The translations under genes and the position numbers were made by a program. Below the pieces are notes generated by a model that was not told where the DNA came from, ran no database searches, and saw nothing but the letters and a program-made list of their open reading frames with translations. Source: Candidatus Parcubacteria bacterium (GTDB taxonomy: Bacteria; Patescibacteriota; Minisyncoccia; SW-4-49-11). From it: 37,764 nucleotides of DNA. Location: the NCBI GenBank assembly GCA_041177485.1, contig JBEDBC010000029.1:1-37764 (forward strand), written 5' to 3'. Of the stretch, positions 7,130-35,755 are shown piece after piece (the stretch's first letter is position 1; every line of letters begins with the position of its first letter).

Positions 7130-7157
7130 TATATCATATATAGTAATATTTTTCGAT

Positions 7158-7430
7158 ATGGCACATAGAAAAGCTGGTGGTTCTACCGCATTAGGAAGAG
7201 ATTCTCATCCAAAATACCTTGGAGTCAAGCTATATGCTGGACAAAAAGTTGAAAAGGGACAGATTATAATTCGTCAAAGAGGAACTAAATTCCATCCTGG
7301 GAAAAATGTAGCCCGTGGAGCAGACGACACACTATACTCAATTGCAAATGGAGTTGTTGAGTTTAAGAACACTAAAAAGACTGCATTCACAGGAAAAAGA
7401 AAGATTGTAAAAACCGTTTCAGTAGTATAA
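7158..7430 (+). CDS. rpmA: 50S ribosomal protein L27
   Basis: [24 protein letters not shown]... is the canonical L27 N-terminus. The track ORF (7083..) carries a spurious 25-codon hydrophobic extension, so I trimmed the start to ATG 7158. Confidence 0.95.
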
Positions 7431-7459
7431 ATTTACATTTAAACTAACACTACTCAAAA

Positions 7460-7482
7460 GACCCCAACAAAGGGGTTTTTTG
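7460..7482 (+). terminator. rho-independent terminator after rpmA
   Basis: ACCCC-aacaaa-GGGGT hairpin followed by TTTTTT. Confidence 0.6.
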
Positions 7483-7532
7483 ATATTTCAAATGTATGAT
7501 ATAATAAAAATACTATAATAAAATATATAAAA

Positions 7533-10252: not shown

Positions 10253-11517
10253 ATTTTATCAATTAATCCCAATAATTTAGCAACCTCTTTTGGCCAATTA
10301 TGCTGAGATAGATCTTCTTGTTGTCTTTTTAACAGTTCTATTCTAGCCTCTTTACTCTGAATGAAGTGCAAAATACTATTAGCAAAAGCCTCAATATCAT
10401 AATAAGCAAAAGTAGGGGTAGATGGGACAACACTAATAAAACCACTGGTCTCCGAGGCAATAGTTGGCACCCCTGATCTAATAGCCTCCAGAGCCGTCAA
10501 TCCAAAAGGCTCATTTGGAGACGGCATCACAAATAACTGACTAGTCTTATAGAGTTGTTTTTTATCATCACTATTCACCCAACCTGTAAATAAAATATTT
10601 TTTTCTAACTTTCTTTTCGCTACATGCTCCACAATTTCTGGTAACAAATTCCCCTCTGTAGAACCATCTCCTGCAATAATAAAAGTCACCTGTGGGTCAA
10701 TCTGAAGGACTCTCACCGCTGTTTCTAATAAGAAAAACAATCCCTTCTGACCTACTACCCTACCTACGAACAAAACGTTTTTACCCTTATCTAAGTGTTC
10801 AAAACCAATTTTCTCTGGCTCAAAACTAATATCATTATAAATCGGATAAATTTTTTCAGCTGGAAGATTATAATCTTCTACCAAGACCTGCTTTGACACA
10901 TCAGACACTACCGCCACCTTATCAGCTCGATAAAAACCTTTTTTCTCAAGCTCGTATAAAGCTTTAGCTGTGTGATCATTGTTATGTATATAGCCACCCG
11001 ACCTATCTACCTCACTAGAGTTAATATGATAGTAAAATGGAGTTTTGACACCATGATGCAATAGTAGAAAATGTGCTGGGATGGACATCCAATCCATACC
11101 ATAAATTACGTCAAATTCTTGTCCATTTTGCGTCAACCAATCGTAAACTGCGCAGGCATAAGCTCTAGTTAGAACTGGAGTATGATTGGGGTATAAAGTT
11201 TCTTTTTTATTATTCCCTTTACTATACAGTAATGGCCAACGAACATACTGTTTTTTGCCCTTAGGGACAAACTCTTTTAAAGTGAAGTCTTCTAATCCAG
11301 GTATTATATTATCTGTTTTAGCATACTTTTTGACCTCTTTTTCAAGTGAAATAATATCCTTAATATGATCAGCATTATGTGGCACTAATACCGTCACCTT
11401 AGCCCCCTGATTTTTGAGCTCATCTACTAGGCTTCTTACCAAAACTCCCAATCCCCCCTCCATCAAAGGGAGTATTTCCCAAGATAAAATTAGGATTCTT
11501 TTGGGAGCTTGAGGCAT
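10249..11517 (-). CDS. GT4/GT5 glycosyltransferase, glycogen-synthase-like
   Basis: 422 aa. N-terminus ILILSWEILPLMEGGLGVLV and C-terminal E-x7-E region (MPSPNEPFGLTALEAIRSGVP) are typical of retaining GT-B glycogen/starch-synthase-like enzymes. Context includes glgP. Confidence 0.7.
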   Translation of the reverse strand: MPQAPKRILILSWEILPLMEGGLGVLVRSLVDELKNQGAKVTVLVPHNADHIKDIISLEKEVKKYAKTDNIIPGLEDFTLKEFVPKGKKQYVRWPLLYSKGNNKKETLYPNHTPVLTRAYACAVYDWLTQNGQEFDVIYGMDWMSIPAHFLLLHHGVKTPFYYHINSSEVDRSGGYIHNNDHTAKALYELEKKGFYRADKVAVVSDVSKQVLVEDYNLPAEKIYPIYNDISFEPEKIGFEHLDKGKNVLFVGRVVGQKGLFFLLETAVRVLQIDPQVTFIIAGDGSTEGNLLPEIVEHVAKRKLEKNILFTGWVNSDDKKQLYKTSQLFVMPSPNEPFGLTALEAIRSGVPTIASETSGFISVVPSTPTFAYYDIEAFANSILHFIQSKEARIELLKRQQEDLSQHNWPKEVAKLLGLIDKI

Positions 11518-19724: not shown

Positions 19725-20576
19725 TCAGTTGTCCCGACTCGTTATGTAATCAGCCAAAGCCAATAGTGGTTTTGCTCTTTCATCCCAAGGAGCTAATGCC
19801 TCCTTAGCCTTTAGTATCAACGCCTTGGCCCGCTGTCGAGACCCATCAAGCCCAAATAACTTGGGATATGTTGTCTTATCAGCAGTCAAATCCTTGCCGG
19901 CGGTTTTGACAAATATATCGCTAATGGCATTAAAATCGAGAATATCGTCAGTAATTTGGAAAGCTAGACAAATACAACTAGCATACACTCTCAGAGCCTC
20001 CACCATATCGTTGTTTGCACCTCCAATAATGGCTCCACTGACCACACTAGCCTGTAAAAGTGCTCCAGTCTTATGAATATGGATGTACTCAAGTGTATCA
20101 ATGTCTACCTCATTGCCTTCACATTCCAAACCCACCACCTGGCCACCCATTAGCCCCCTAGCACCAGAGGCAAGCGAAAGCTCACCAACTACAGCAAGCA
20201 ATCGCTCGGCTGGAACATCAGTACTATTTAAAGCCACCATCTCAAAGGCTCTGGCGAACAGAGTATTGCCGGCTAGAATTGCATTAGCCTCACCATATAC
20301 CTTATGGTTAGTGGGTCGGCCACGACGCAAGTCAGAATTATCTATTGGGGGTAGGTCGTCGTGTATCAGCGACATTGTATGAATCATCTCAATTGCCACA
20401 GCCGTGGGCATGGCTAGAGTAGGATTCCCTCCAGCTAGCTCACAAGCTGCCAAGCAAAGAATCGGCCGAAGTCTCTTACCACCAGCCAGTAGTGAATAAC
20501 TCATCGCTTCCCTGAGTTTTTCGGGAAACTCGGTTTTTGTACCTAGCGAGGTGTCAAGGGCTTCCTCCACCTGCAA
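19725..20576 (-). CDS. crtE: geranylgeranyl diphosphate synthase, cyanobacterial/plastid type; possibly N-terminally truncated or pseudogenised
   Basis: 283 aa. Contains LLAGGKRLRPILCLAACEL, EMIHTMSLIHDDLP (first Asp-rich motif), HKTGALL, FQITDDILD (second Asp-rich motif), KTAGKDL and a C-terminus LLALADYITSRDN. The open frame begins at TTG. The homologous frame continues upstream to ATG 20645 but is interrupted by TAA at 20615..20613. G+C is clearly higher than the rest of the window. Confidence 0.8.
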   Translation of the reverse strand: MQVEEALDTSLGTKTEFPEKLREAMSYSLLAGGKRLRPILCLAACELAGGNPTLAMPTAVAIEMIHTMSLIHDDLPPIDNSDLRRGRPTNHKVYGEANAILAGNTLFARAFEMVALNSTDVPAERLLAVVGELSLASGARGLMGGQVVGLECEGNEVDIDTLEYIHIHKTGALLQASVVSGAIIGGANNDMVEALRVYASCICLAFQITDDILDFNAISDIFVKTAGKDLTADKTTYPKLFGLDGSRQRAKALILKAKEALAPWDERAKPLLALADYITSRDN

Positions 20577-20750
20577 CCGAGTTGTTTCTAGATAAGTGGC
20601 GAAATTAAATTGTTAATTTTGTTGAGCCAGTTTTTTCTGAGCCATAGTAAAGAGCTCCCTCTCGCCTGAGCGAGAATAGATTGACCCTAAACTTATAACA
20701 CAGTCTCCACTTTTTGTCTATGCTGGGGTTTCGTCTCGCTGGGTTGTGCT

Positions 20751-20926
20751 TTTCGTAGGGGCGACCTTTGTTCTAAAAATTCCCCTCTTGAGGGGTAGAT
20801 TTCTGCTATGTTTATATAGCGGGAAGACGGGGTGGAGTGTTTTTGGGCTATTTATAAATACTTTATTCCACCCCGTCAGGAAAGCCTGCCACCCCTCAAG
20901 AGGGGAATTAGCTCATCATCGCCCCC
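20751..20926. repeat. GC-rich nested-palindrome repeat, copy R1 (full length)
   Basis: Three nested inverted repeats. Outer pair: GGGGCGACC (about 20757) and ATCGCCCCCC (20917..20926). A and A' arms: AATTCCCCTCTTGAGGGGT (20778..20796) and CACCCCTCAAGAGGGGAATT (20890..20909). B and B' arms: GACGGGGTGGAGT (20827..20839) and ATTCCACCCCGTC (20866..20878). Near-identical copies occur at 27016.. and 31141... Confidence 0.9.
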
Positions 20927-23365: not shown

Positions 23366-23455
23366 TAATATAAACTTTGTAGTGGAGAGTTTTGTACTAT
23401 TGTCTCTATCTGGAGAGGGGGGCAGTTTATATAACTTTTCCCTATGATTAAAACA

Positions 23456-23484
23456 CGAAAAAGCACTGACCAATGATCAGTGCT
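23456..23484 (-). terminator. terminator of the tRNA transcription unit
   Basis: AGCACTGA / TCAGTGCT 8-bp stem with a 7-nt loop, followed on the minus strand by TTTTTC. Confidence 0.55.
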
Positions 23485-23521
23485 AATAGCAATAAATTTT
23501 GGAGGGACAGATCCCTCGGAA

Positions 23522-23666
23522 TGGGAGTGATGGGATTTGAACCCACGACCTTTGGTTTTAGATTCAAGACATATAGATTGGGACTACACATCTCTTATGA
23601 AAATGGTTAGAGTTTAAAAGGCGCCTCTCTAACCCCAAGATGCAACCAAACAACACCTACACCCCC
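23522..23666 (-). tRNA. aberrant 145-nt tRNA-like gene (canonical acceptor, D and T arms; about 70 nt of extra sequence in the anticodon/variable region); identity unresolved, possibly Leu(UAG)-like
   Basis: - Acceptor stem: 5' GGGGGTG pairs with 3' CACTCCC (one G.U), with discriminator A.
- D arm: GGTG-TTGTTTGGTTG-CATC, a long class-II-like D loop with GG.
- T arm: GTGGG-TTCAAAT-CCCAT.
- Between them lie 92 nt instead of about 22. These include TTGGG...CCCAA, which could be the anticodon stem, and an 8-bp hairpin GGTTAGAG-N14-CTCTAACC. Confidence 0.45.
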
Positions 23667-23676
23667 TAGAGGGAAA

Positions 23677-23748
23677 CGACGGGAGAGTGATTCGAACCCT
23701 CGACCTCCTGCGAGTCATGCAGGCGCTCTACCACTGAGCTATCCCGCC
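23677..23748 (-). tRNA. tRNA-Val(GAC)-like, with non-canonical positions
   Basis: Cloverleaf: GGCGGGA-TA-GCTC-AGTGGTA-GAGC-G-CCTGC-ATGACTC-GCAGG-AGGTC-GAGGG-TTCGAAT-CACTC-TCCCGTC-G. Anticodon GAC. Oddities are U at position 37, a G52-A62 mismatch and discriminator G. No encoded CCA. Confidence 0.65.
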
Positions 23749-23762
23749 GTGAACCGTATATT

Positions 23763-23790
23763 ATTATACACACTTTATAAAATTAATCAA
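23763..23790 (-). promoter_or_regulatory. promoter of the tRNA unit
   Basis: Minus strand reads TTGATT (23790..23785), a 16-nt spacer, then TATAAT (23768..23763). About 15 nt upstream of the tRNA 5' end. Confidence 0.6.
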
Positions 23791-23810
23791 GAGCTGAGGT
23801 GAGAATAAAT

Positions 23811-23844
23811 AAAAAATTCCTCCCAACCCATGAGCAGGCGGGAG
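23811..23844 (-). terminator. terminator of small gene 23866..24141
   Basis: CTCCC...GGGAG hairpin followed on the minus strand by AATTTTTT. The sequence is paralogous to the terminator at 24570..24602. Confidence 0.5.
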
Positions 23845-23865
23845 TAGGTTGTAGATGAAGAAGCG

Positions 23866-24141
23866 TTAGGAAGGAGTCGGCCTAGATACGAGAAAATTTG
23901 TGTTTCTTGTATCTTGGGATGTTGGGGTTGTCTCAGAAAGAATTGTACAGGCTTGCTTGAGTACAGGGTACCGAGCGAACAATTGATTCAAAACTTTAAC
24001 GCTTTGATTTTCTCTTTGACTAATGTTAATAAAAACTTCAGCTACGCAGTGATTGAGTACTGCACGATTCCAATCCGAAGAAGATTGAGTATAGGCTTCA
24101 TAAGCTAGAGATGTTGCAGCAACTAAATCAATGATTTCCAT
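23866..24141 (-). CDS. orphan small protein (91 aa)
   Basis: I trimmed the ORF to ATG 24141 (MEIIDLVAATS...). It has its own TTGCAG-17-TGtTATAAA promoter and a terminator. No family recognised. Confidence 0.45.
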   Translation of the reverse strand: MEIIDLVAATSLAYEAYTQSSSDWNRAVLNHCVAEVFINISQRENQSVKVLNQLFARYPVLKQACTILSETTPTSQDTRNTNFLVSRPTPS

Positions 24142-24169
24142 TCTGAGCACCTAATGAAAGGACATTATT

Positions 24170-24198
24170 TTTATAACATATAATATTTTATTCTGCAA
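24170..24198 (-). promoter_or_regulatory. sigma70 promoter with extended -10
   Basis: Minus strand reads TTGCAG (24198..24193), a 17-nt spacer, then TGtTATAAA (-10 at 24175..24170). Confidence 0.6.
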
Positions 24199-24199
24199 G

Positions 24200-24234
24200 A
24201 AAAACCCCTCCAGACATATTACTGGAGGGGTTTT
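24200..24234. terminator. bidirectional-type terminator hairpin
   Basis: CCCCTCCAG-N8-CTGGAGGGG, a perfect 9-bp stem, flanked by an A-run on the left and a T-run on the right. It terminates minus-strand gene 24279..24506. Confidence 0.65.
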
Positions 24235-24278
24235 ATACTTTTAGATTTAACTAAAGTAAAACCTAAAGTTGTAATGAT

Positions 24279-24506
24279 TTAATGCTCTGCATCTGTAAGA
24301 TATAATTTATATCCATATTGACCATATCTTCTATGATGTTTCTCTATTGTATTTTTTTGATTCTTTAATGAGTAATAGAGTTTTTGGAGTTCAAATTTAT
24401 TTTTAATATCTTGATTAACTCTTAACATCTTATCCAATAACTCTATTATCCGCAGTAGTTTCCAATTAATGTGGCTTCTCAGCTTTGGAGATTGATTAGA
24501 AGTCAT
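24279..24506 (-). CDS. orphan small basic protein (75 aa)
   Basis: I trimmed the ORF from its TTG start to ATG 24506 (MTSNQSPKL...). TGtTAATAT lies 5 nt upstream of the ATG, which suggests a leaderless mRNA. Confidence 0.45.
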   Translation of the reverse strand: MTSNQSPKLRSHINWKLLRIIELLDKMLRVNQDIKNKFELQKLYYSLKNQKNTIEKHHRRYGQYGYKLYLTDAEH

Positions 24507-24511
24507 GAGTA

Positions 24512-24520
24512 ATATTAACA
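24512..24520 (-). promoter_or_regulatory. extended -10 element (TGtTAATAT) abutting the start codon
   Basis: Minus strand reads TGT (24520..24518) then TAATAT (24517..24512). 5 nt separate it from ATG 24506. Confidence 0.45.
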
Positions 24521-24569
24521 AAGATCAATATAATCTAATCATAAATTTACATTACTTGCAAATCTAAAT

Positions 24570-24602
24570 AAAAATCCTCCCAAACCATGACCTGGCGGGA
24601 GG
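24570..24602 (-). terminator. terminator of small gene 24622..24867
   Basis: CCTCCC-N15-GGGAGG hairpin followed on the minus strand by ATTTTTAT. Confidence 0.55.
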
Positions 24603-24621
24603 AAGTTGAAGAGATTGAGAA

Positions 24622-24867
24622 TTATGACAAAGTACCTATCAACCTCTTTTGTGATTCAAGTACCGGAAGTGGATATCTCCTATCCGATAGATTTTCCTTA
24701 TACTGAGTGATGTTAGGCTGATGATGTTGTAACAATTTTAGCAAAGTACTTAATTCGTTTTTATCTTGCTGCCTAAGTCCTTCTTCTTCCAATCTTTGTG
24801 GAATAATATTTAAAAGATTTAAGAGTCTATCAGAATCAAAGAAAATCCTTTTTACCGTCTGAGCCAT
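24622..24867 (-). CDS. orphan small protein (81 aa)
   Basis: I trimmed the ORF from its TTG start to ATG 24867 (MAQTVKRIFF...). AAGG lies about 9 nt upstream. It has its own TTGCCA-17-TATAAA promoter. Confidence 0.45.
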   Translation of the reverse strand: MAQTVKRIFFDSDRLLNLLNIIPQRLEEEGLRQQDKNELSTLLKLLQHHQPNITQYKENLSDRRYPLPVLESQKRLIGTLS

Positions 24868-24895
24868 TAGATGTACCTTGATTTGGGACAAATAA

Positions 24896-24924
24896 TTTAT
24901 ACCCTAAAATTAAATTTTTGGCAA
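24896..24924 (-). promoter_or_regulatory. sigma70 promoter
   Basis: Minus strand reads TTGCCA (24924..24919), a 17-nt spacer, then TATAAA (24901..24896). Confidence 0.55.
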
Positions 24925-24953
24925 GTGTTGGTGGGATAAGTTTACATTTGTAT

Positions 24954-25298
24954 TTCGTAGGGGCGACCTTACAGTCGCCTGTAAGTCCTCCTCAGCCGTC
25001 GCAAATAGGATTTGCTCCTATGAAACCTCACGGTTTCCCAACCTTCCTCCACGGGAAAACTACCGTTTTTCCGACCCCTTTCCCGTGACACCCACCTCCT
25101 AAATAAATATAGGAGGAACTTAAAGTCGCCCCAAGGGAGGACAAAATAACTGTCCCTCGCTGGCGAGGGTGGCACGGAGTGCCGGGTGTGGACTGAGTTT
25201 TTAATTCATAATTTCAAATTATTCCACCCCGTCAAGAAAATAGTAATCCACCCCCCCCTTCGGGGACTCCCTCCAAAGGGAGAAAATAAACCTCAAAC
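24954..25298. repeat. composite GC-rich hairpin-dense repeat block, copy R3
   Basis: - Starts with TTCGTAGGGGCGACC, the same 5' module as R1 and R4.
- Contains module GGAGGACAAAATAACTGTCCCTCGCTGGCGAGGGTG (25136..25171), which is the reverse complement (34/36) of 27241..27276.
- Contains a 33-nt exact direct copy of 27322..27354 at 25202..25234.
- Carries many short GC hairpins. Confidence 0.85.
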
Positions 25299-26069
25299 CT
25301 ACTTTTCGTTTCCAAAGTAGTACAATCTATACCCCCACATCCAATATCCCACTCCAGCCAATACCAGCCACCAAAACCCAAGCCAAGCTGAGATCCCAAT
25401 CCAAAAGCTCAAGCTCCAGAAACCAGACAAACTAAGCCAATAACTAATATTATTAGCTATTTGTTTGTGATTTAGGAATAGAAGATAAAATCCAGCAAAG
25501 GAGATAATACTAGTCACCATCCAACCAAAGAAATTCATCAAAGGCACTCCATAATACCAACCCTGAATTTCCCACACCCAAAAACCTAAAGCCGTGGCCC
25601 CTGGATCAAGAATCAAATCAAAAGTCGTCATCAAAATAGCTCCAATGATAGTGTTGAGCCAAACTTTCTTGATTTGTAGCCTACTCACCAATACCAAACT
25701 AAAGAAAAAAATTGGCACCCAAGATAAACTCACTGTCCAAGGTACTAACCCGAAGACTTTAAGATTGCCAAGCACCTCACCATATACAAAATTACTATAT
25801 GGCCAACCGGTAGCGATAGCAAAAGATTCTATCAGAAGTGGATAGCTGAATATAATTAGTATTTTCCACCAATCTTGCCTCAAATCAAACCACTTAGATA
25901 GTCCGTATAATATGGGAAAAGCAATCAAAACATTAGTCACCTGCGAGATGGCTTGGAATATCCAAAAAGGAAAAGGTAAGGCTTCTGGCCTCAAACTAAA
26001 ATATACTACAAAGAATCCACTCAGGATTAAGATAATGGCTGGAATAATTAGTAATAATTTTTTCTGCAT
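25299..26069 (-). CDS. cruF: CruF-family carotenoid 1,2-hydratase-like membrane protein (DUF422 / 'carotenoid biosynthesis protein')
   Basis: 256 aa with about 7 TM helices. Motifs LILDPGATALGFWVWE and YYGVPLMNFFGWM match my recollection of the PF04240/CruF family. Adjacent to a lyeJ-like prenyltransferase and a CrtI-family desaturase. Confidence 0.7.
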   Translation of the reverse strand: MQKKLLLIIPAIILILSGFFVVYFSLRPEALPFPFWIFQAISQVTNVLIAFPILYGLSKWFDLRQDWWKILIIFSYPLLIESFAIATGWPYSNFVYGEVLGNLKVFGLVPWTVSLSWVPIFFFSLVLVSRLQIKKVWLNTIIGAILMTTFDLILDPGATALGFWVWEIQGWYYGVPLMNFFGWMVTSIISFAGFYLLFLNHKQIANNISYWLSLSGFWSLSFWIGISAWLGFWWLVLAGVGYWMWGYRLYYFGNEK

Positions 26070-26103
26070 ATATGATATACTTAGATTATATAATTATATC
26101 ACA

Positions 26104-26943
26104 ATGAGTATTGCTAAACTATTACAAATTTCCAGACCCAGATTTTGGATTTATCTCTTGGGGCCTTATTTGATTGGGAGTATTCTTGGCTTTGACCCGA
26201 TGCAAATTATCTGGCAATGGCAATTTTGGCTTGGATTTGTATATTTTAACCTACCTGCTAATCTTTTGATTTATGGAGTCAATGATATTTTTGATTATGA
26301 GACTGACAAACTCAATCCAAAAAAACAAAATTATGAAGCCCTAGTCACTCCGGCTGAGCATATTTCTCTTTGGACTTGGATTATACTTACTAATATTCCT
26401 TTTATTCTAGCTATATATTTGCTAAACCCTTTGACTTTATTTGGTTGGCTTGGATTTATTATCTTGGGGGTGCAATATTCAGCTTGGCCAATTCGGGCTA
26501 AGGCGAAGCCATTTTTGGATTCTATTTTTAATATTTTATATATTTTTCCTGGAGTAATTGGATATACTCTCTTAGCTAATAAACTCAATCTAGACTGGAA
26601 ATTATTATTAAGTGCTGGATTATGGACTATGGCTATGCATACTTATTCAGCTATCCCAGATATTGAGGCTGATAGGGCGAGCCATACCACCACTATTGCA
26701 ACTGTACTGGGAGCTAAGTTGACCTTGGTGTATTGTTTTATCTGCTATACTCTAGCTGGAATTTTGTTAGCTCAATTTAGCACCCCACTTGGGATTATAA
26801 TTGCTATTGTATATGGATTTATGATTGGCTTTAGTTGGTCTCAAAATACCGCTAAAATATTCAGATTATACACCTATTTCCCAGCCTTAAACACAGTAAT
26901 TGGCTTGCTTTTATTCTGGAGCATAGTGATTTGGTATAGGTAG
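26104..26943 (+). CDS. lyeJ: UbiA-family prenyltransferase, lycopene elongase/hydratase (LyeJ)-like
   Basis: I trimmed the track ORF 25912.. to ATG 26104. 279 aa. SRPRFWIYLLGPYL, LPANLLIYGVNDIFDYETDKLNPKK (Asp-rich motif), YSAWPIRAKAKPFLDS and MHTYSAIPDIEADR match motifs I recall from haloarchaeal lycopene elongase. Confidence 0.7.
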   Translation: MSIAKLLQISRPRFWIYLLGPYLIGSILGFDPMQIIWQWQFWLGFVYFNLPANLLIYGVNDIFDYETDKLNPKKQNYEALVTPAEHISLWTWIILTNIPFILAIYLLNPLTLFGWLGFIILGVQYSAWPIRAKAKPFLDSIFNILYIFPGVIGYTLLANKLNLDWKLLLSAGLWTMAMHTYSAIPDIEADRASHTTTIATVLGAKLTLVYCFICYTLAGILLAQFSTPLGIIIAIVYGFMIGFSWSQNTAKIFRLYTYFPALNTVIGLLLFWSIVIWYR

Positions 26944-27015
26944 TTTATTATGTTATAAATCTCTTTTAGGGCTTTTAGTCCCTCCTATTATTTCTTTTAA
27001 AGAGATATTAGGAGG

Positions 27016-27392
27016 GGGGGCGATCTTTGTTCTAAAAATTCCCCTCTTGAGGGGTGGATTCATGCTATGTTTATATAGAAGGGAGACGGGGTGGAGTGTT
27101 TTAAATCTATTTATAAATACTCCACCCCGTCAGGCAAGCCTGACCACCCCTCAAGAGGGGAATTTAGCTCAGTCCCTAAACTAGACAGAGTAGACTTTGA
27201 TATATATATTTTGCCTATCCACACCCGTCGACTTCGTCTACACCCTCGCCAGCGAGGGACAGTTTTATTGTCCTCCTTTGGAGGAGGTGGCACCTTAGGT
27301 GACGGAGGAGGACAAAATATATAATTCATAATTTCAAATTATTCCACCCCGTCAGGCAAGCCTGCCACCCCTCAAGAGGGGAATTTAGCTCA
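27016..27392. repeat. GC-rich nested-palindrome repeat, copy R2 (full unit 27016..27175) plus extension modules and a half unit (27341..27392)
   Basis: A arm at 27037..27057, B at 27085..27097, B' at 27121..27131, A' at 27145..27165. These are followed by module CACCCTCGCCAGCGAGGGACAGTTTTATTGTCCTCC (27241..27276), the TTGTCCTCC...GGAGGACAA inverted repeat, and a second B'-A' half ending 3 nt from the crtI-family stop codon. Confidence 0.9.
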
Positions 27393-27394
27393 AT

Positions 27395-28897
27395 CTAACT
27401 CTCTCCTCTCAGTGGGCTGTCTTGTTTGATTTTAGCTATTCTTTTATAGACCATCTCAGCACTAATTAGTTGGATGGGTACTCCAATTCCTGGATTGGTT
27501 CCTGCTCCGACATAGTATAGATTTTTGACTTTTTTGGAATAATTATTAGGTCTAAATATTGCAGTTTGATTAATAGTATGAGCAAGCCCAAGAGCTGTAC
27601 CCTGATAGGCATTATAATCTTGCTTAAAGTCTTTGACACTATATAGTCTTTTATAAATAATTCTCTGTTGCAAGTTTGGGATATTCATCTCCTCTTGCAT
27701 AATGGTAAGCACCTTATCAGCATAGGCTTCTAATTGCTCCTCGGTATACTCGAGTCCAGCTGCAATCGGAACAAGTACAAATAAATTCTCATCAGTAGCT
27801 GGAGCAACACTAGGGTCGGTCTTGGATGGAGCACAGACATATAGAGACGGGTCTTCCGGCCACATTGGATCATCAAAAATTTGCTTGAAGTTTGTCCTCC
27901 AATCCTGAGAGAATAAGAGGTTATGATGTACTAGGCTATCCACTTTACCTTTGATTCCTAGATACATAATAAGTGCTGAAGGGGCTAGAACTTTTTTATC
28001 CCAATATTTCTCATCATATTGGCGATACTGGGATGGTAGCAGATTTAATTCGGTATGAGTCATATCGGCATTAGATACCACGATATCTGCTTTTACAATT
28101 TCTCTAGACTCAAGCTCTACACCTATCGCCTTACCATTTTTTACAATAATTTGTCTCGCTCCATTGCCACTGACCAAATTTACTCCATTTTTCTTGGCGA
28201 TATTGACCAGAGCTTCAGTAATTGTATACATACCACCTTGTGGGTAAAAAACACCCATATTAAAGTCAATATGATTCATAATACTATATAGAGCTGGAGT
28301 ATTATATGGAGAGCTACCCAGGAAAACTAGAGGGTATTGGAGAATTTTTTTGACTAAGTCATTTTTGAAATATTTGCTCACATAGGCATCCATATTACTA
28401 AAGACAGATAATTTGGAGCCTTCTATCATAGTTCTGAAGTTTATAAAGTCAAAGATAGAGTCATAATTTTTATACATAAATCCATCTTTGGCAATTTCAT
28501 ATTGCTGGCGGGCTTTATCTAAATATTCCCTGAGTCTGTCTCCAGCGCCTGGCTCTAAATCTTCCAAAACTGGGATATCTCGCTCTAGATCGGAGAACAT
28601 ATCGATAATTTTGTTATCATCTTTGAAAAATATCCGATAAGATGGCTCCAAGCGAATCAAGTCCAAGTGATCCTCTACCTTCTCCCCCATAAATTCAAAA
28701 AAATTCTCGAATACATCAGGCATCAGATACCAAGATGGCCCCATATCAAACTTGAATCCCTCAACCTCAAAGATATTAGCTCGTCCTCCTAAATTAGAGT
28801 TTTTCTCATATAGACTAACTTCATATCCTTTTTTGGCTAAGATACAAGCAGTGGCTAGCCCCCCAATTCCCCCACCGATAATAATTACTTTTTGCAT
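27395..28897 (-). CDS. crtI: phytoene desaturase-family FAD oxidoreductase (CrtI/CrtD type; by context possibly a carotenoid 3,4-desaturase)
   Basis: 500 aa. N-terminal FAD fold VIIIGGGIGGLATA...YEKNSNLGGR, FDMGPSWYLMPDVFE, and C-terminal YYVGAGTNPGIGVP are typical of the CrtI family. Confidence 0.85.
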   Translation of the reverse strand: MQKVIIIGGGIGGLATACILAKKGYEVSLYEKNSNLGGRANIFEVEGFKFDMGPSWYLMPDVFENFFEFMGEKVEDHLDLIRLEPSYRIFFKDDNKIIDMFSDLERDIPVLEDLEPGAGDRLREYLDKARQQYEIAKDGFMYKNYDSIFDFINFRTMIEGSKLSVFSNMDAYVSKYFKNDLVKKILQYPLVFLGSSPYNTPALYSIMNHIDFNMGVFYPQGGMYTITEALVNIAKKNGVNLVSGNGARQIIVKNGKAIGVELESREIVKADIVVSNADMTHTELNLLPSQYRQYDEKYWDKKVLAPSALIMYLGIKGKVDSLVHHNLLFSQDWRTNFKQIFDDPMWPEDPSLYVCAPSKTDPSVAPATDENLFVLVPIAAGLEYTEEQLEAYADKVLTIMQEEMNIPNLQQRIIYKRLYSVKDFKQDYNAYQGTALGLAHTINQTAIFRPNNYSKKVKNLYYVGAGTNPGIGVPIQLISAEMVYKRIAKIKQDSPLRGES

Positions 28898-28927
28898 ATT
28901 TGAAACAATTTAACTTAATTTACGTAT

Positions 28928-28936
28928 ATTATAACA
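28928..28936 (-). promoter_or_regulatory. extended -10 promoter element of the crtI-family gene
   Basis: Minus strand reads TGTTATAAT (28936..28928), about 30 nt upstream of ATG 28897. Confidence 0.5.
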
Positions 28937-28956
28937 TAAATTTAAGAGTAAAACTA

Positions 28957-28965
28957 TGCTATAAT
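28957..28965 (+). promoter_or_regulatory. extended -10 promoter element of the small membrane-protein gene
   Basis: TGcTATAAT (28957..28965). A GGAG lies just upstream of the ATG pair at 28985/28991. Confidence 0.5.
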
Positions 28966-28990
28966 ATATTTATCCTTTCTGGAGATGTTT

Positions 28991-29179
28991 ATGGATTGGA
29001 AGATTTTGCTAGGAGCTTCAATTATCTTGTTTATATCTACTGGAATAAGTTTCAGAGCACATCTACATACCCCTCTGAAAAGAAGAACTGAAGGAGGCTT
29101 TCAACCTTTTACTTTTTTTCTTCTATTAGCTTCGGGGGCCTTAATCGCCTCAATCTTGTTCTTTTTTTTTGATAATTAG
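28991..29179 (+). CDS. small two-TM membrane protein (62 aa; an alternative start at 28985 gives 64 aa)
   Basis: MDWKILLGASIILFISTGISF...FFLLLASGALIASILFFFF gives two hydrophobic helices. It has its own extended -10 promoter and a strong terminator, and is divergent from the crtI-family gene. Confidence 0.5.
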   Translation: MDWKILLGASIILFISTGISFRAHLHTPLKRRTEGGFQPFTFFLLLASGALIASILFFFFDN

Positions 29180-29202
29180 ATATCTTATCATCGCACACTA
29201 AA

Positions 29203-29238
29203 AGCCTCGGGGGACATCATCCACGAGGCTTGTTTTTT
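29203..29238 (+). terminator. rho-independent terminator
   Basis: AGCCTCG-N14-CGAGGCT stem followed by TGTTTTTT. Confidence 0.65.
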
Positions 29239-29285
29239 CATAAACAAAAAGATTTGGTTATATACATATAGTTAATAGCTTGCAT

Positions 29286-29315
29286 TTGCATAATTAGCTA
29301 ACTTTATGGTATATA
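29286..29315 (+). promoter_or_regulatory. sigma70 promoter with extended -10
   Basis: TTGCAT (29286..29291), 18-nt spacer, TGgTATATA (-10 at 29310..29315). Confidence 0.55.
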
Positions 29316-29343
29316 TAAAAAGCCTTTGTTTTCACTAAGTACA

Positions 29344-29499
29344 ATGAGTGATCAAACCTTCCAAAGAGCTAAGTACAAGATTGCAATTCATAAGAGTATA
29401 GGGAAATCTTGGCATACTGTATTCTCTACGATGGATGAGGCTGCTCAATCTTGGTTGGATTACCAAACACAAAAAAGCCCAACATCTATTGAAGAATGA
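29344..29499 (+). CDS. 51-aa small protein (unannotated; replaces antisense track ORF 29335..29541)
   Basis: Own translation: MSDQTFQRAKYKIAIHKSIGKSWHTVFSTMDEAAQSWLDYQTQKSPTSIEE. It has a plus-strand promoter upstream and a plus-strand terminator downstream. The sequence has the flavour of small beta-beta-alpha proteins, but this is not a confident family call. Confidence 0.5.
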   Translation: MSDQTFQRAKYKIAIHKSIGKSWHTVFSTMDEAAQSWLDYQTQKSPTSIEE

Positions 29500-29582
29500 T
29501 TCAATACAGTAAACCCAGGGGCATTTCCCTATGTATCTCACCCTATGAGATTATAGAAATTATGTGCCTAATTCAAAATATA

Positions 29583-29609
29583 TGAGATAGCTAGATCTAT
29601 CTCATTTTT
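29583..29609 (+). terminator. rho-independent terminator
   Basis: TGAGATAG-ctagat-CTATCTCA, a perfect 8-bp stem, followed by TTTTT. Confidence 0.65.
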
Positions 29610-29613
29610 ATAT

Positions 29614-29640
29614 AAAAGCACCCCGTACAGAGTACAGGGG
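29614..29640 (-). terminator. terminator of the 30099-to-29672 two-gene unit
   Basis: CCCCGTAC / GTAC(A)GGGG bulged stem followed on the minus strand by TGCTTTTATA. Confidence 0.5.
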
Positions 29641-29671
29641 GAATAAGGAATAAGGAATTATGAATTTAGGT

Positions 29672-29917
29672 TCAACGAAATTTAGAACGGATTGTTCGCA
29701 TCTTGCGTAGTAATACATACCACACACTAATTCGAAATCCATTAAGCTCTAATATTGCTATTTTATAATTGTTCTCCAGATTTAAAAAGTATCGATCAAA
29801 CTTGTCTGGATCTTCAGAATATAATCTATCCAAACTTAACAATCTACAATCCTCAATTTGTGACTTCAGATATCTAAACAGTTGTCTAATTTTGACAAAG
29901 TTAGATTGTGATTTCAT
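29672..29917 (-). CDS. orphan small protein (81 aa)
   Basis: ORF coupled by an ATGA overlap to the upstream small TM-protein gene. No family recognised. Confidence 0.45.
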   Translation of the reverse strand: MKSQSNFVKIRQLFRYLKSQIEDCRLLSLDRLYSEDPDKFDRYFLNLENNYKIAILELNGFRISVWYVLLRKMRTIRSKFR

Positions 29918-30099
29918 GTTAAAATTCTAACAATTGAGGAATTTTTATTGTCGTTTTTATCTTGTTGCCAAGCTAAAAGAGCTATACCAAGTCCTGACAC
30001 TAGTAAGAGCATTAATACACTAGCACATGCACCAATGAAACTGATTCTAGATTGTGGTTGAGGTTGATTCGACATAACAAGATAAATGTCGAGGTACAT
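29914..30099 (-). CDS. orphan small single-TM protein (61 aa; an alternative start at Met9, position 30075)
   Basis: Hydrophobic helix ISFIGACASVLMLLLVSGLGIALLAW. The promoter's -10 box ends only 4 nt before ATG 30099, so the internal start may be the one used. Confidence 0.45.
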   Translation of the reverse strand: MYLDIYLVMSNQPQPQSRISFIGACASVLMLLLVSGLGIALLAWQQDKNDNKNSSIVRILT

Positions 30100-30103
30100 A
30101 TTT

Positions 30104-30132
30104 TATATAACATATCTCTAAAAATAAGACAA
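30104..30132 (-). promoter_or_regulatory. sigma70 promoter with extended -10
   Basis: Minus strand reads TTGTCT (30132..30127), a 17-nt spacer, then TGtTATATA (-10 at 30109..30104). Confidence 0.6.
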
Positions 30133-30138
30133 GTAATT

Positions 30139-30166
30139 AAAAATCTGGCAACAGTGTGTGCCAGAT
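30139..30166 (-). terminator. rho-independent terminator
   Basis: ATCTGGCA-N8-TGCCAGAT, a perfect 8-bp stem, followed on the minus strand by TTTTT. Confidence 0.65.
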
Positions 30167-30176
30167 TTTAAAGTTA

Positions 30177-30359
30177 TTATTGACCAGACATAATATCTGG
30201 TGGATTATTTAGATGCAAAAGTTGGCTTCTCTCATTTTCTGCTCTTCTTCTATCCTTTTGTATTTGCATGATTCCACGCGTAATAACTCTACTCACAGTT
30301 GGATCCTGGAGAAATTTTTTAAACATAGTCCCAAAATCTGATGCTGGGTACTCCACCAT
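30177..30359 (-). CDS. orphan small protein (60 aa)
   Basis: I trimmed the track ORF from its GTG start at 30386 to ATG 30359 (MVEYPASDF...). AAGAGG lies 6 nt upstream. A TTGACA-16-TGaTAATAT promoter lies upstream. Confidence 0.5.
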   Translation of the reverse strand: MVEYPASDFGTMFKKFLQDPTVSRVITRGIMQIQKDRRRAENERSQLLHLNNPPDIMSGQ

Positions 30360-30387
30360 AAGACCTCTTAGAAGATAGGCAAACACA

Positions 30388-30415
30388 ATATTATCACAAC
30401 CATAAAATTTGTCAA
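30388..30415 (-). promoter_or_regulatory. sigma70 promoter with extended -10
   Basis: Minus strand reads TTGACA (30415..30410), a 16-nt spacer, then TGaTAATAT (-10 at 30393..30388). Confidence 0.65.
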
Positions 30416-30425
30416 GAGTATATAT

Positions 30426-30453
30426 GAAACCCCCCGCAGTTTACCTACGGGGG
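30426..30453 (-). terminator. candidate terminator
   Basis: CCCCCG-N11-CGGGGG stem followed on the minus strand by a weak T-run (TTTCAT). Confidence 0.4.
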
Positions 30454-30471
30454 CGATAAAAACACAAGACA

Positions 30472-30735
30472 TTATTGCCAACATGGACCCCATCTTTGAT
30501 ACCAATTCTTCTGCCTCATTAAATAGCATTTTGCCTTTGGGTTATCTGGTGATGGAAAAGTTGGAGCACTTAAAGATTTAATTATATTATTGACTATATG
30601 TGAATTTGAATTCGCCATAGTTGGAGTATAGACCATAAATCCTAACACTCCAACCAATAATAACACATATTTAAGCCTTGTCATTTTACTGACTCGGCGG
30701 GGAAGAAAACAATTTGAAAGATCATGATCTTCCAT
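30472..30735 (-). CDS. small secreted protein/peptide precursor (87 aa; start possibly Met18)
   Basis: Signal-peptide-like MTRLKYVLLLVGVLGFMVYTPTMA. The mature part ends in a W/K/R-rich segment bracketed by two Cys (KCYLMRQKNWYQRWGPCWQ). Confidence 0.5.
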   Translation of the reverse strand: MEDHDLSNCFLPRRVSKMTRLKYVLLLVGVLGFMVYTPTMANSNSHIVNNIIKSLSAPTFPSPDNPKAKCYLMRQKNWYQRWGPCWQ

Positions 30736-30761
30736 AAAATTTGACAGCAGAGGTCGACATA

Positions 30762-30790
30762 TTTATAACATATCTAAAAAACTTTGTAAA
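30762..30790 (-). promoter_or_regulatory. sigma70 promoter with extended -10
   Basis: Minus strand reads TTTACA (30790..30785), a 17-nt spacer, then TGtTATAAA (-10 at 30767..30762). Confidence 0.6.
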
Positions 30791-30809
30791 GTCTAATTTG
30801 ACAAATTAG

Positions 30810-31058
30810 ATGATTTTGGGTATTGTGAATGAGTCTTTTTGGGAGATTATTTTGCAAATTCAGGAGCTGGAAATTAGCATCAAAAGGATTCAAGCTAGAA
30901 TTAGATTTTTAAGAAAAAATATATTAAAAAATCATAATCTAAAAGTAAAAATTGAATCTTTGAAACAAAAAATCAATGATCTACTACAGTTAGAAGATGA
31001 CTGGCTAACAGTACATTATAGCGAAGCAAGGTATATCCATGAAAAAGCAAATCACTGA
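30810..31058 (+). CDS. orphan coiled-coil-like small protein (82 aa)
   Basis: Heptad-like charged/hydrophobic pattern (ELEISIKRIQARIRFLRKNILKNHNLKVKIESLKQKINDLLQLE). Followed by a strong terminator. Start and promoter are not well defined. Confidence 0.45.
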   Translation: MILGIVNESFWEIILQIQELEISIKRIQARIRFLRKNILKNHNLKVKIESLKQKINDLLQLEDDWLTVHYSEARYIHEKANH

Positions 31059-31061
31059 TCT

Positions 31062-31100
31062 AACCCCACCCCCGACTTTGGAGGTGGGGTTCTAAGTTTT
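31062..31100 (+). terminator. rho-independent terminator
   Basis: AACCCCACC-N12-GGTGGGGTT, a perfect 9-bp stem, followed by CTAAGTTTT. Confidence 0.6.
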
Positions 31101-31140
31101 ATGTAGAGGAGGTTAAAATTAAGTTTAATCTGTGATAGTA

Positions 31141-31320
31141 GGGGGAAACCTTTCAGTCGCCTGTGTTTTTTACTAAAATTCCCCTCTTGAGGGGTGGATT
31201 CCTGTTATGGTTATATAGCGGGGAGACGGGGTGGAGTGTTTTTATATTATTTATAAATACTGTATTCCACCCCGGCCTACGGGAACCCTCTTGAGGGGAA
31301 TTTAGATCAGTCCACACCCT
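31141..31320. repeat. GC-rich nested-palindrome repeat, copy R4
   Basis: - 5' module GGGGGAAACCTTTCAGTCGCCTGT.
- A arm AAATTCCCCTCTTGAGGGGTGG (31177..31198).
- B arm GACGGGGTGGAGT (31225..31237).
- B' arm ATTCCACCCCG (31264..31274).
- Variant A' arm CCCTCTTGAGGGGAATTT (31286..31303).
- 3' tail CAGTCCACACCC, shared with R3.
- Abuts the murI stop codon. Confidence 0.9.
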
Positions 31321-31321
31321 C

Positions 31322-32911: not shown

Positions 32912-35755
32912 TTACAATAGAGGTTTTAGATACCTTCCTGTGTAGCTCTTAGGATTTTTTGCTATTTCCCTTGGAGTACCCTCTGCTACAACAGTTCCTC
33001 CTTTAGCTCCTCCTTCAGGACCAATATCTATAATATAGTCTGAACTTTTAATAATATCTAGATTATGCTCAATGATTAAAATTGTATTACCTTTATCTGC
33101 CAATTGATTCAATACTCTTAATAGCTTGGCTACATCCTCAAAATGAAGTCCCGTAGTTGGCTCATCTAATATATATATAGTCTTCCCTGTAGCTCTCTTG
33201 GATAGCTCTGTAGCTAATTTAATTCGTTGCGCTTCTCCTCCAGACAATTGTGGAGCTGGCTGTCCTAATTTCATATAGCCAAGCCCTACATCATAAAGAG
33301 TTGCTAGTTTATCTTTTAAGCTCGGAATAGATTTGAAAAATTCTAAGGCAGTCTCTACATCCATATCCAAAACGTCTGCAATACTCTTACCTTTATACAA
33401 AATTTGTAAAACTTCTTTGTTATATCTCTTGCCGTGACAATCTTCACAATCTACATAAATGTCTGGCAGGAAATTCATCTCTATTTTGAGTACACCATCC
33501 CCCTTACAAGTCTCACAGCGACCACCTTTGACATTAAAGCTAAATCTACCAGTCTGATAACCTTTTAATTGTGCTTCTGGAGTTTTAGCAAATAAATCCC
33601 TCACTACAGTGAATAAGCCTGTATATGTAGCTGGATTAGATCTTGGGGTGCGACCAATTGGAGATTGATCTATATTGACCATTTTGTCTATATTCTCAAG
33701 ACCTGTAATATCTTTGAATTTACCCGGTAAATCTTTAGCGCCATATCTAGTATGTGCGATATGTTTACACAGAATGTCTTGTATCAAGGTACTTTTACCA
33801 GATCCAGACACTCCAGTAATACAGACCATTTTACCTAGTGGGATAGCTACATCTATATTTTTAAGATTATTCTCAGCAGCACCTTTAATTGTAACAATCT
33901 GGTCATTACCTTTACGGTATTTTGTGGGTGGAATTATAGAGCGCCTACCAGAAAGATATTCAGCCGTAATTCCTTCTTGCTTGATAAAATCTTGTGGATG
34001 ACCCTGCGCAATAATTCTACCTCCGGCAGCTCCAGCTCCCGGTCCGACATCAATTACATAATCCGAAGCCCTAATAGTATCCTCATCATGCTCTACCACA
34101 ATCACAGTGTTCCCTAAATCTCTGAGATGTTGTAAAGTCTGTATAAGACGATTATTATCCCGCTGATGTAGACCAATAGATGGCTCGTCTAAAATATATA
34201 GCACTCCCATCAACCCTGAACCAATCTGAGTTGCTAGCCTAATTCGCTGAGCCTCTCCCCCAGATAGAGTATTGCTCGATCTATCCAAAGTCAGGTAATC
34301 TAGACCAACATTGAGTAGGAATTTGAGTCTGGATTGAATTTCTTTGAAAATTGGGGTGCTAATCGCTATGTCTCTTTCATTAAAATATTCTTTGTTATTC
34401 TGAACCTTTTCTATATGAACAGACAATTCATCAATACTCATATTCACTATCTGGTCAATAGTCTTATGTGCTACCTGTACCGCTAAAAACTGCTTTTTGA
34501 GTCTTTTTCCATTACAAGTAGGACAAATAGTATTGAGCATATATTTCTCAATCTCAGCTCGGATAAATTCCGAATCAGTTTCCTGATACCTTCTCAATAA
34601 ATTAGGAATAACCCCCTCATAAGTCCCCTCGACCGTATGGGAACCTGAACGAATTGGAACTTTTATAGGAGTCTCAGAACCATATAACACAAAATGTAAA
34701 TCCTCCGAACTTAAATTCTGTACTGGGGTTGTCAAGCTAATACCTTTCATCTCCGCTACAGTTTCCAAAACCTTCATATACCAACCGAAAGCTCCTTTTT
34801 GTTTACCTATACCCCAAGGCTTAATCGCCCCTTGATTAATAGTCAATCTTGGGTTAGGTATTACCAAGTCTGGAGAAATCTCTGGGGTGTATCCTAAGCC
34901 ATCACAAGTACCACAAGCGCCATGAGGACTATTAAAAGAAAAGTTTCTGGTCTCTAATTCCCCAAAACTCTCCCCCGAGTCCATGATGTATTTTTCACTC
35001 ATCAATTCATCCTGATAGATATTTTTATTCTTATCCAGAATTTCTGACACAATCAACATACCCTCACCTAATCTAAGAGCAATTTCTACTGAATCTAGCA
35101 CTCTAGCAGCTTCAAATCCTGATTGATCTAATAATCTATCTATAACTAACTCAATAGAATGTTTTTTTTGCTTATCTAAATTTAGCTCTAAAGCCTCTTC
35201 AGTCAAATAAATAATTCCATCTATCCGCACGCGCATAAATCCATCTTGAAAGGCCTTTTGAATAATTCCTTTATGCTCTCCCTTTTTATCCCTAATAATT
35301 GGAGATAAAATCATAATTTGCTTATCTTTGTATCTAGCAATATTTTCTGCCATTTGCTTAGCATCTTGCATGCGTATTAACTCCCCTGTCTCTGGATTAA
35401 ACGGAATTCCTACTCTAGCATACAATAGTCTCAAATAATCATAAATTTCTGTTACCGTACCAACTGTAGATCTTGGATTTCGGGATACACTTTTTTGGTC
35501 AATCGAAATGGCTGGAGACAAACCTTCTATTACATCCACATCTGGCTTATCCATCATACCCAAAAACTGTCTAGCATAGGCAGATAAGCTCTCTACATAC
35601 CTTCTCTGTCCCTCGGCATAAATCGTGTCAAAAGCCAAAGAAGATTTTCCCGATCCTGACAAACCAGTAATTACAACCAATTTATCTCTTGGAATAGTAA
35701 TATCTACATTCTTAAGATTATGCACTCTAGCTCCCTTGATTCTAATTTCATTCAT
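32912..35755 (-). CDS. uvrA: excinuclease ABC subunit A
   Basis: 947 aa. Two ABC ATPase modules ([10 protein letters not shown] and [10 protein letters not shown]; LSGGEAQR twice), Zn-finger CxxC pairs ([16 protein letters not shown]), and the canonical N-terminus [11 protein letters not shown]. Confidence 0.95.

Follow-up and report, generated by a model that had tools for sequence, protein, structure and literature searches.

The closest described counterpart of the genes analyzed here is the haloarchaeal crtD(crtI)-lyeJ-cruF operon, which we take to be c0507-c0505 in Haloarcula japonica and HVO_2528-2526 in Haloferax volcanii. In haloarchaeal loci the desaturase, lyeJ and cruF genes are colinear, usually with the phytoene synthase gene (crtB) nearby, and colinear trios also occur in nanohaloarchaeal and flavobacterial loci. 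We analyzed a 37,764-nucleotide stretch of DNA from a Candidatus Parcubacteria bacterium (contig JBEDBC010000029.1, assembly GCA_041177485.1; JGI contig Ga0466463_000015), referred to below as the window, in which three adjacent genes match this set. Judging from the sequence comparisons, this trio quite likely supplies the late steps of a complete pathway, inherited on the chromosome, for a bacterioruberin-type carotenoid with 50 carbon atoms (C50) in a freshwater clade of Paceibacteria, bacteria of the candidate phyla radiation (CPR). The three genes are as follows.

25299-26069, minus strand: cruF-like gene, 256 aa, PF04240.
26104-26943, plus strand: lyeJ-like gene, 279 aa, PF01040 and NF009516.
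27395-28897, minus strand: crtI-family flavin adenine dinucleotide (FAD) desaturase gene of CrtID type, 500 aa, NF058655 and TIGR02734.

Going by their descriptions, the Actinobacterial C50 pathways (Arthrobacter bacterioruberin; Corynebacterium CrtEb decaprenoxanthin) resemble the window case as bacterial C50 routes that use a UbiA-type lycopene elongase. Unlike the present host, those bacteria are free-living and have full isoprenoid pathways, and in the CrtEb systems there are additional cyclases, for which the window has no counterpart. For the Actinobacterial pigments, a role in cold adaptation of the membrane has been proposed (PMC8709818, as cited in PMC9948471). Within CPR, Haro-Moreno et al. 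2023 reported lyeJ, crtD and cruF in Patescibacteria of Lake Baikal (PMC9948471), a case that shares the phylum, the three genes and the freshwater habitat with ours. Their material consisted of read bins and a few metagenome-assembled genomes (MAGs); they discussed a role in cold adaptation, noted that the genes need not cluster and found the LyeJ and CrtD trees to be polyphyletic, and crtB and crtE were not addressed. In contrast to the Baikal case, the window clade (SW-4-49-11-like Paceibacteria) has a tightly linked trio in a conserved context, and its early genes could be located in a crtE-crtB-recA block. Chiriac et al. 2022 (PMC9166423) placed crtB and crtI among the 'Light' genes of several CPR classes, at class level only and under column headers that are unconfirmed.

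The window set and the haloarchaeal operon have in common the three protein families, the clustering of the genes and a single CrtID-type desaturase. Each window protein matches its counterpart in the colinear loci, and identities to the haloarchaeal proteins are 42-45% for the desaturase, 38-40% for LyeJ and 29-33% for CruF, the last measured against haloarchaeal cruF genes that adjoin lyeJ. A crtD-lyeJ-cruF operon of Halolamina, scored with the same NCBIfam models, reaches 412 bits on NF009516, 729 bits on NF058655 and 342 bits on CruF_Halo. Because the window LyeJ and desaturase both score above the curated cut-offs for the models that the haloarchaeal operon matches, they are assigned to the same families. 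The reading of the three genes as a bacterioruberin-type set, which was that of the preliminary description, is thus upheld by the family profiles (PF04240, PF01040, NF009516, TIGR02734 and NF058655) and by the matches to colinear haloarchaeal operons, and the comparison supports the trio as the counterpart of the haloarchaeal crtD-lyeJ-cruF set. The differences are also clear. The window host is a CPR bacterium with AT-rich DNA, the identities are only 29-45%, and CruF falls under the equivalog cut-offs discussed below. The window genes do not form one co-directional operon, since lyeJ diverges from cruF and converges with crtID; the lyeJ/crtID gap is occupied by repeat elements in the window and by unrelated genes in the relatives. 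Finally, crtB of the window clade lies at a distant locus beside recA.

The lyeJ-like protein scores 71 bits on PF01040 (UbiA) and 259 bits on NF009516/PRK12875 (curated cut-off 205). With at most 43 bits on the UbiA, MenA, MqnP, chlorophyll synthase and DGGGP (digeranylgeranylglyceryl phosphate) synthase models, it does not group with the quinone, heme O or archaeal-lipid prenyltransferases, in line with the earlier assignment, and the two Asp-rich motifs quoted earlier for it are indeed present (NDIFDYETD, residues 60-68; DIEAD, residues 186-190). Some of these proteins have already been annotated 'lycopene elongase/hydratase' by JGI. The addition of C5 units to lycopene with 1,2 hydration is a candidate activity of LyeJ. 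As also read earlier from the sequence, cruF and lyeJ stand back to back with 34 bp between their start codons (26070..26103). This layout, and the linkage of lyeJ to both cruF and a CrtD/CrtI-type desaturase, is conserved in the 12 clade loci that we compared. An upstream ATG at 25912 was considered as the lyeJ start and rejected because about 30 homologues share the length of 279 aa. In a neighbour-joining tree the window LyeJ clade has a bootstrap value of 100. It lies nearer to a cruF-linked, GC-rich set that includes Acidobacteria-named proteins than to the other CPR cassettes; with support of 12-50 this placement, and any origin of the clade drawn from it, is tentative.

The desaturase clearly exceeds the threshold of the TIGR02734 crtI_fam model (499 bits vs 238) and matches PF13450 and PF01593, and MQKVIIIGGGIGGL at its N-terminus corresponds to the FAD-binding fold. 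It also matches NF058655, 'CrtID bifunctional phytoene desaturase/3,4-desaturase', marginally (648.7 bits vs 640). Our literature search on 'CrtID' returned nothing relevant, and we know the basis of NF058655 from its NCBIfam title only. Other CPR cassettes encode desaturases that score 600-605 bits on this model, under the cut-off of 640, and that are 52-59% identical to the window enzyme. Among them are desaturases, 53-58% identical to that of the window, that are the only ones in their cassettes and whose genes directly follow crtB, in five or more further CPR-like lineages. Based on this identity, we take the window desaturase to be the probable orthologue of a working phytoene desaturase. 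In haloarchaea, deletion of the family member HVO_2528 gave colourless cells (PMC7714787). Together with the presence of a sole desaturase in the crtB-crtI-lyeJ cassettes, this phenotype suggests that CrtID may carry out both the four-step desaturation of phytoene and the 3,4-desaturation. Upstream of the gene lies one candidate promoter element.

28928-28936, minus strand: extended -10-like motif TGTTATAAT, 31 nt upstream of the desaturase ATG; consensus match only.

The preliminary description had credited the desaturase with a host-style promoter. The motif is there, but the nonamer occurs four times in the window against 1.3 copies expected by chance, so as promoter evidence it is weak and gives only a hint.

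For the cruF-like gene, the earlier CruF-type assignment had been made to depend on a match to PF04240. The 256-aa membrane protein matches this profile (Caroten_synth) at 124 bits (cut-off 25) over model positions 14-203 of 209. Moreover, archaeal C50-hydratase models score higher than the gamma-carotene 1'-hydroxylase model. Hydration of C50 carotenoids at 2'',3'' is a candidate function.

The window carries neither an rRNA nor a ribosomal-protein marker, and its assignment to CPR was made through relatives, identified by a scan over one genome per Genome Taxonomy Database (GTDB) species. LyeJ proteins 71-93% identical to that of the window occur in 12 species-level MAGs, most of them labelled Candidatus Paceibacteria, Parcubacteria or Minisyncoccia; the minority labels are Candidatus Saccharibacteria (two), 'uncultured bacterium' (one) and Cytophagales (one). 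According to the supplement of PMC9166423, the relative ZE-Oct18-75 is classified as p__Patescibacteria; c__Paceibacteria; o__SW-4-49-11, with 787 kb, a GC content of 34% and an estimated contamination of zero. The context of the trio is constant in the 12 clade loci (IleRS-rmlCD-...-6PGD-...-ValRS-cruF/lyeJ-...-crtI-...-UvrA), whose housekeeping proteins are 84-95% identical to those of the window. In the Paceibacteria/Parcubacteria MAGs compared, ValRS, IleRS and UvrA flank the trio in synteny and are 85-95% identical to those of the window; the contigs concerned include three that are 425 kb, 341 kb and 234 kb long. The CPR-type host proposed at the outset is thus confirmed through the relatives, which place the window in a freshwater Paceibacteria clade.

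The host-like composition noted earlier also holds: with values of 0.36-0.38, the trio and the housekeeping genes do not differ in GC content. Around and between the trio genes the relatives differ in PIN toxin pairs, an M23 peptidase gene, an NAD synthase gene and small open reading frames (ORFs), with the trio retained. Pairwise ratios of nonsynonymous to synonymous substitution rates (dN/dS) against the 12 relatives are 0.08-0.16 for cruF, 0.06-0.17 for lyeJ and 0.02-0.05 for crtID. From the constant context and dN/dS values of 0.02-0.17 we infer that the trio is resident in this CPR clade, vertically inherited and under purifying selection. A contig that is mis-assigned or chimeric, with a trio that stems from an ordinary pigmented bacterium, is by comparison extremely improbable. 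Its one point of support is contig L020, which was binned as Cytophagales and carries a 71% identical LyeJ homologue, whereas the trio sits amid ValRS, IleRS and UvrA in synteny with Paceibacteria/Parcubacteria MAGs, matches its neighbouring genes in composition and belongs to a clade whose member ZE-Oct18-75 is estimated to be free of contamination. The L020 homologue itself (10001-10825, contig GC 0.42) has neither cruF nor a desaturase gene within 10 kb and represents either a mis-binned contig or a transfer.

We then considered the early steps of the pathway. By analogy with other CPR cassettes, crtE-crtB would be expected in the two gene-poor stretches near the trio (23366-25298 and 28898-31321). 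A tblastn search with a CPR CrtB protein retrieved no match in the 38-kb window, these stretches included, even at E<=10, in agreement with the preliminary description. Likewise, none of the clade loci has a crtB gene within 10 kb on either side of its trio. The genes were found at a second locus. On four metagenome contigs with a GC content of 0.31-0.33 (L078, L086, L091 and L101), crtE-crtB-recA is followed by two histidine phosphatase genes, LeuRS and then orthologues of a group of window genes.

6728-9152: anchor genes, comprising a 130-aa ORF, a 115-aa ORF and a 539-aa glucan phosphorylase-like gene; not carotenoid genes, with orthologues beside crtE-crtB-recA.

The identity of these anchors to the four contigs is 82-84% for 7533-9152, 82-87% for 7083-7430 and 58-70% for 6728-7120. 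For the two best-conserved anchors (82-87%), this equals the divergence among the trio-bearing genomes, in which housekeeping proteins are 84-95% identical. The link between the crtE-crtB-recA block and the window orthologues is independent of binning.

Two MAGs link the block with the trio. In JBEAQD01 (L011), the nearest GTDB relative (ValRS 95%, LyeJ 93% and CrtID 95% identical to the window), LyeJ is MEY2985954.1 (RJB24_183) and the desaturase is MEY2985955.1. CrtB is MEY2986071.1 (RJB24_300), the type I geranylgeranyl diphosphate (GGPP) synthase is MEY2986072.1 (RJB24_301) and LeuRS is RJB24_296. As shown by the shared locus-tag prefix RJB24, LyeJ, CrtB and the GGPP synthase are encoded in one MAG. 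The RecA of the crtE-crtB-recA block is identical to MEY2986070.1, and the order on its contig, a different one from that of LyeJ, is crtE (353 aa)-crtB (286 aa)-recA-...-LeuRS. In JBMTTF01 (L013), CrtB (MGA1049985.1) and RecA (MGA1049986.1) are 121 accession numbers apart from LyeJ (MGA1050106.1) and CrtID (MGA1050107.1), and this proximity makes it very likely that crtB and the trio belong to one genome. The CrtB protein has its full length (PF00494, 238 bits), and both Asp-rich motifs, DEIVD and DIGED, are present in the copy on L123. Among five versions of the block, CrtB is 80-85% identical; this divergence in step with the trio suggests that the block and the trio were co-inherited. The pathway thus looks complete and split over two loci, and the crtE-crtB block of the window's own genome presumably lies elsewhere in that genome, its loss being less likely.

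These results bear on the idea, raised in the preliminary description, that the organism has no phytoene synthase and that the trio tailors carotenoids or polyprenyl lipids obtained from a host or partner cell. In its favour are the absence of crtB from the window and from the 10 kb on either side of the trio in every clade locus, a nonsense codon in the local CrtE-like gene, and the general view that CPR depend on hosts for lipids (PMC9166423; PMC9948471). We now consider it very unlikely, because RJB24_300 and RJB24_301 share a MAG with LyeJ RJB24_183, the second MAG concurs, and four contigs join crtE-crtB-recA to orthologues of window genes. In addition, crtE-crtB diverges as the trio does, and the desaturase is orthologous to those whose genes directly follow crtB in other CPR lineages.

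The nonsense codon concerns a gene between the glutaredoxin and ValRS genes.

19725-20645, minus strand: CrtE-like prenyl-diphosphate synthase gene, a second copy, with TAA at codon 11 (20613-20615); a 283-aa ORF is open from TTG 20576.

Codon 11 is TAA in the window and TCA in the 91% identical orthologue of L011. The gene had been said to look damaged, which is partly right in view of this early nonsense codon; yet it is the sole internal stop, the Asp-rich motifs DDLPPID and DDILD are intact, and the 283-aa ORF scores above the cut-off of the farnesyl diphosphate (FPP)-synthase subfamily model NF045485 (342 bits, cut-off 275). On the CrtE GGPP-synthase model NF045685 it reaches 423 bits, below 460. 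Re-initiation at TTG 20576 is possible, and the stop at codon 11 might also be a sequencing error. The gene has a higher GC content (0.475 vs about 0.37) and third-position GC content (GC3, 0.415 vs about 0.30) than its neighbours, and outside the window it occurs in L011 (91%) and L012 (68%) only. We therefore regard it as a recent horizontal acquisition, a redundant second synthase besides the type I enzyme encoded beside crtB.

Taken together, the two loci suggest the following route, in which each enzymatic step, the end product, its role and the window's own crtE-crtB are inferred. The type I GGPP synthase and CrtB, encoded directly upstream of recA, would produce phytoene, as is usual for their families. 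CrtID would convert phytoene to lycopene and, as a family member and the sole desaturase of the cassettes, would probably also introduce the 3,4 double bonds. LyeJ, judging from its family, would add a C5 unit to each end and hydrate it. The CruF-type protein would then hydrate the added units, which is the weakest step of the scheme. The route would end in the membrane with bacterioruberin or a closely related hydroxylated C45/C50 carotenoid. The literature that PMC9948471 cites on Arthrobacter and haloarchaea assigns to such pigments membrane rigidification in the cold and photoprotection. In the present clade, the pigment may likewise stiffen the membrane in cold water or protect against light.

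Carotenoid genes are also found in other CPR lineages. At least five CPR-like lineages beyond the window clade carry crtB-crtI-lyeJ cassettes. An arrangement of (crtE)-crtB-crtI with convergent lyeJ is present in L022/L023, L033, L036/L042, L038 and L040 and on dozens of metagenome contigs, and a CrtB profile search also retrieved proteins listed at NCBI under Zambryskibacteria, Levybacteria, Minisyncoccia and Patescibacteria group. The window clade shares with these cassettes the CrtID-type desaturase, the LyeJ-type prenyltransferase (38-46% identical), the convergent lyeJ and the CPR-like hosts. In the other cassettes, crtB and usually crtE lie directly upstream of the desaturase gene, whereas in the window clade crtE-crtB is elsewhere and cruF is present. 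No cruF match was found in the fetched loci of the other cassettes, with the exception of the low-GC contig L057. Given these cassettes and the Baikal report (PMC9948471), the trio can no longer be called unexpected in CPR, as it was in the preliminary description. The CrtB matches P0128, P0141, P0145, P0146, P0159 and P0161 were looked up individually and rejected; they belong to cassettes of other lineages, apart from one that is part of a proteobacterial hpnCDE locus.

Several points weigh against a complete bacterioruberin-type pathway in the window organism. Only 38 kb of its genome were read, and crtB was not seen in them; beside the window phosphorylase gene, GH57-GT-IleRS takes the place of LeuRS...crtB. 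That crtB and the trio share a genome depends on MAG binning for both JBEAQD01 and JBMTTF01, and the contig-synteny link, though independent of binning, is indirect. In addition, a class-level survey of freshwater CPR listed for the classes other than Gracilibacteria only C10-C20 isoprenoid steps and no pathway for C5 units, so that neither MEP nor MVA was recorded for freshwater Paceibacteria (PMC9166423). The enzymes might accordingly be self-encoded while isopentenyl diphosphate and dimethylallyl diphosphate (IPP/DMAPP), or prenyl diphosphates, are scavenged from the host, which is conceivable if rather doubtful. In a weaker variant, crtB would be gone from the window strain and crtE, with its nonsense codon, would be on the way out, leaving an orphan late pathway. 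Finally, the end product could differ from bacterioruberin, as the CrtID cut-off is exceeded by 9 bits only and the cruF-like protein remains under all three curated CruF equivalog cut-offs (TIGR03460, 101.5 vs 154.7; NF041333, 84.3 vs 300; NF045693, 59 vs 400). The flavobacterial cruF from a colinear operon likewise remains under the cut-offs (106 and 102 bits), and the cut-offs may therefore be tuned to archaea. We consider the window protein a member of the CruF family with putative specificity, and its scores below the equivalog cut-offs make the exact end product uncertain.

A complete pathway with another product would involve divergent specificity of the CruF-like or LyeJ-like enzyme and could lead to a bisanhydrobacterioruberin-like C50 carotenoid, a C45 intermediate or a 1,2-hydrated C40 carotenoid. 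The low CruF scores and the modest identity of LyeJ and CruF to their haloarchaeal counterparts are consistent with this, and the absence of a cruF match from most other CPR cassettes makes product diversity in the phylum likely. Nevertheless, counterparts of all three haloarchaeal functions are present and tightly linked, LyeJ and CrtID exceed the cut-offs of the models matched by the haloarchaeal operon genes, and CruF favours the archaeal C50-hydratase models over the gamma-carotene 1'-hydroxylase model. A different product is thus unlikely in our view, and a route to bacterioruberin or a close relative is preferred.

CPR bacteria are commonly described as lacking lipid biosynthesis, and a conserved, apparently complete route under selection, leading to a C50 carotenoid that would span the membrane, indicates that some of them have a membrane or photoprotective chemistry of their own. 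That CPR invest in pigments has already been pointed out for the Patescibacteria of Lake Baikal. With the trio genes published in 2023 and the early genes found in relatives, we therefore regard the locus as part of an ordinary pigment pathway, apparently complete, in an unusual host. What is new is the placement of crtE-crtB at a separate locus beside recA, which gives a two-locus architecture and makes supply from a host unnecessary. Also new are the existence of at least two cassette architectures among CPR lineages, the redundant CrtE-like gene with its nonsense codon, and the recurring DNA-repair neighbourhood.

The DNA-repair neighbours recur at several loci. The crtE-crtB pair lies directly upstream of recA in L078, L086, L091, L101 and L123, a crtB-crtI-lyeJ cassette lies between uvrB-uvrA and uvrC in L033 (10001-13242), and in the window clade the trio is a few kb from uvrA (window 32912-35755). 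The adjacency of carotenoid and DNA-repair genes may reflect a shared response to light or ultraviolet (UV) radiation, and the proximity to recA and uvrABC could mark a light/UV-protection gene set of surface-water episymbionts. Phytoene synthase genes with neither a desaturase gene nor lyeJ in the fetched flanks were seen on low-GC metagenome contigs (0.23-0.36), namely L046 (7980-8909), L049 (7977-8879), L050, L069 and L120. It may be common for small AT-rich genomes to have their carotenoid genes split between loci.

The intergenic regions around the trio contain GC-rich palindromic repeats at four sites.

24960-25295: GC-rich palindromic repeat element downstream of the cruF 3' end, with a terminator-like hairpin.
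27026-27395: GC-rich palindromic repeat elements that fill the convergent lyeJ/crtID gap, with terminator-like hairpins.
20780-20907: repeat copy of the same family, upstream of the crtE-like gene.
31142-31312: repeat copy of the same family, at the distal end of the variable region of small ORFs upstream of crtID.

The cores of the repeats are TTCCCCTCTTGAGGGGTGG, GACGGGGTGGAGTGTTTT, and CCCTCGCCAGCGAGGG followed by a T-run. TTCCCCTCTTGAGGGGTGG and GACGGGGTGGAGTGTTTT have six matches each, with about zero expected, and in the window they match at these four sites only. Several clade loci (L006-L021) likewise contain copies. The repeats look like miniature inverted-repeat transposable elements or repetitive extragenic palindromes (MITE/REP-like), and some of the hairpins resemble intrinsic terminators. 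Scans of the window for Rfam families and tRNA genes returned only a tRNA-Val (23676-23749) and no Rfam family for the GC-rich intergenic elements. The stretches 28898-31321 (2.4 kb) and 23366-25298 (1.9 kb) contain only ORFs of 60-95 aa and this tRNA gene, which is unusual for a dense CPR genome. At the matching places the relatives differ, with PIN toxin-antitoxin pairs, an M23 peptidase gene or an NAD synthase gene.

LeuRS near the crtE-crtB-recA block varies in length. It has 993-995 aa in L086 (11467-14451), L101 (11430-14408) and L078 (6705-9683), with a NUDIX insert after the editing domain in L086, and about 830 aa without this insert in L123 and L091. Unrelated to the pigment genes, the window also encodes an 807-aa type IV secretion coupling protein of VirD4/TrwB type (1194-3617, minus strand), which fits the conjugation-like machinery of CPR in the literature.

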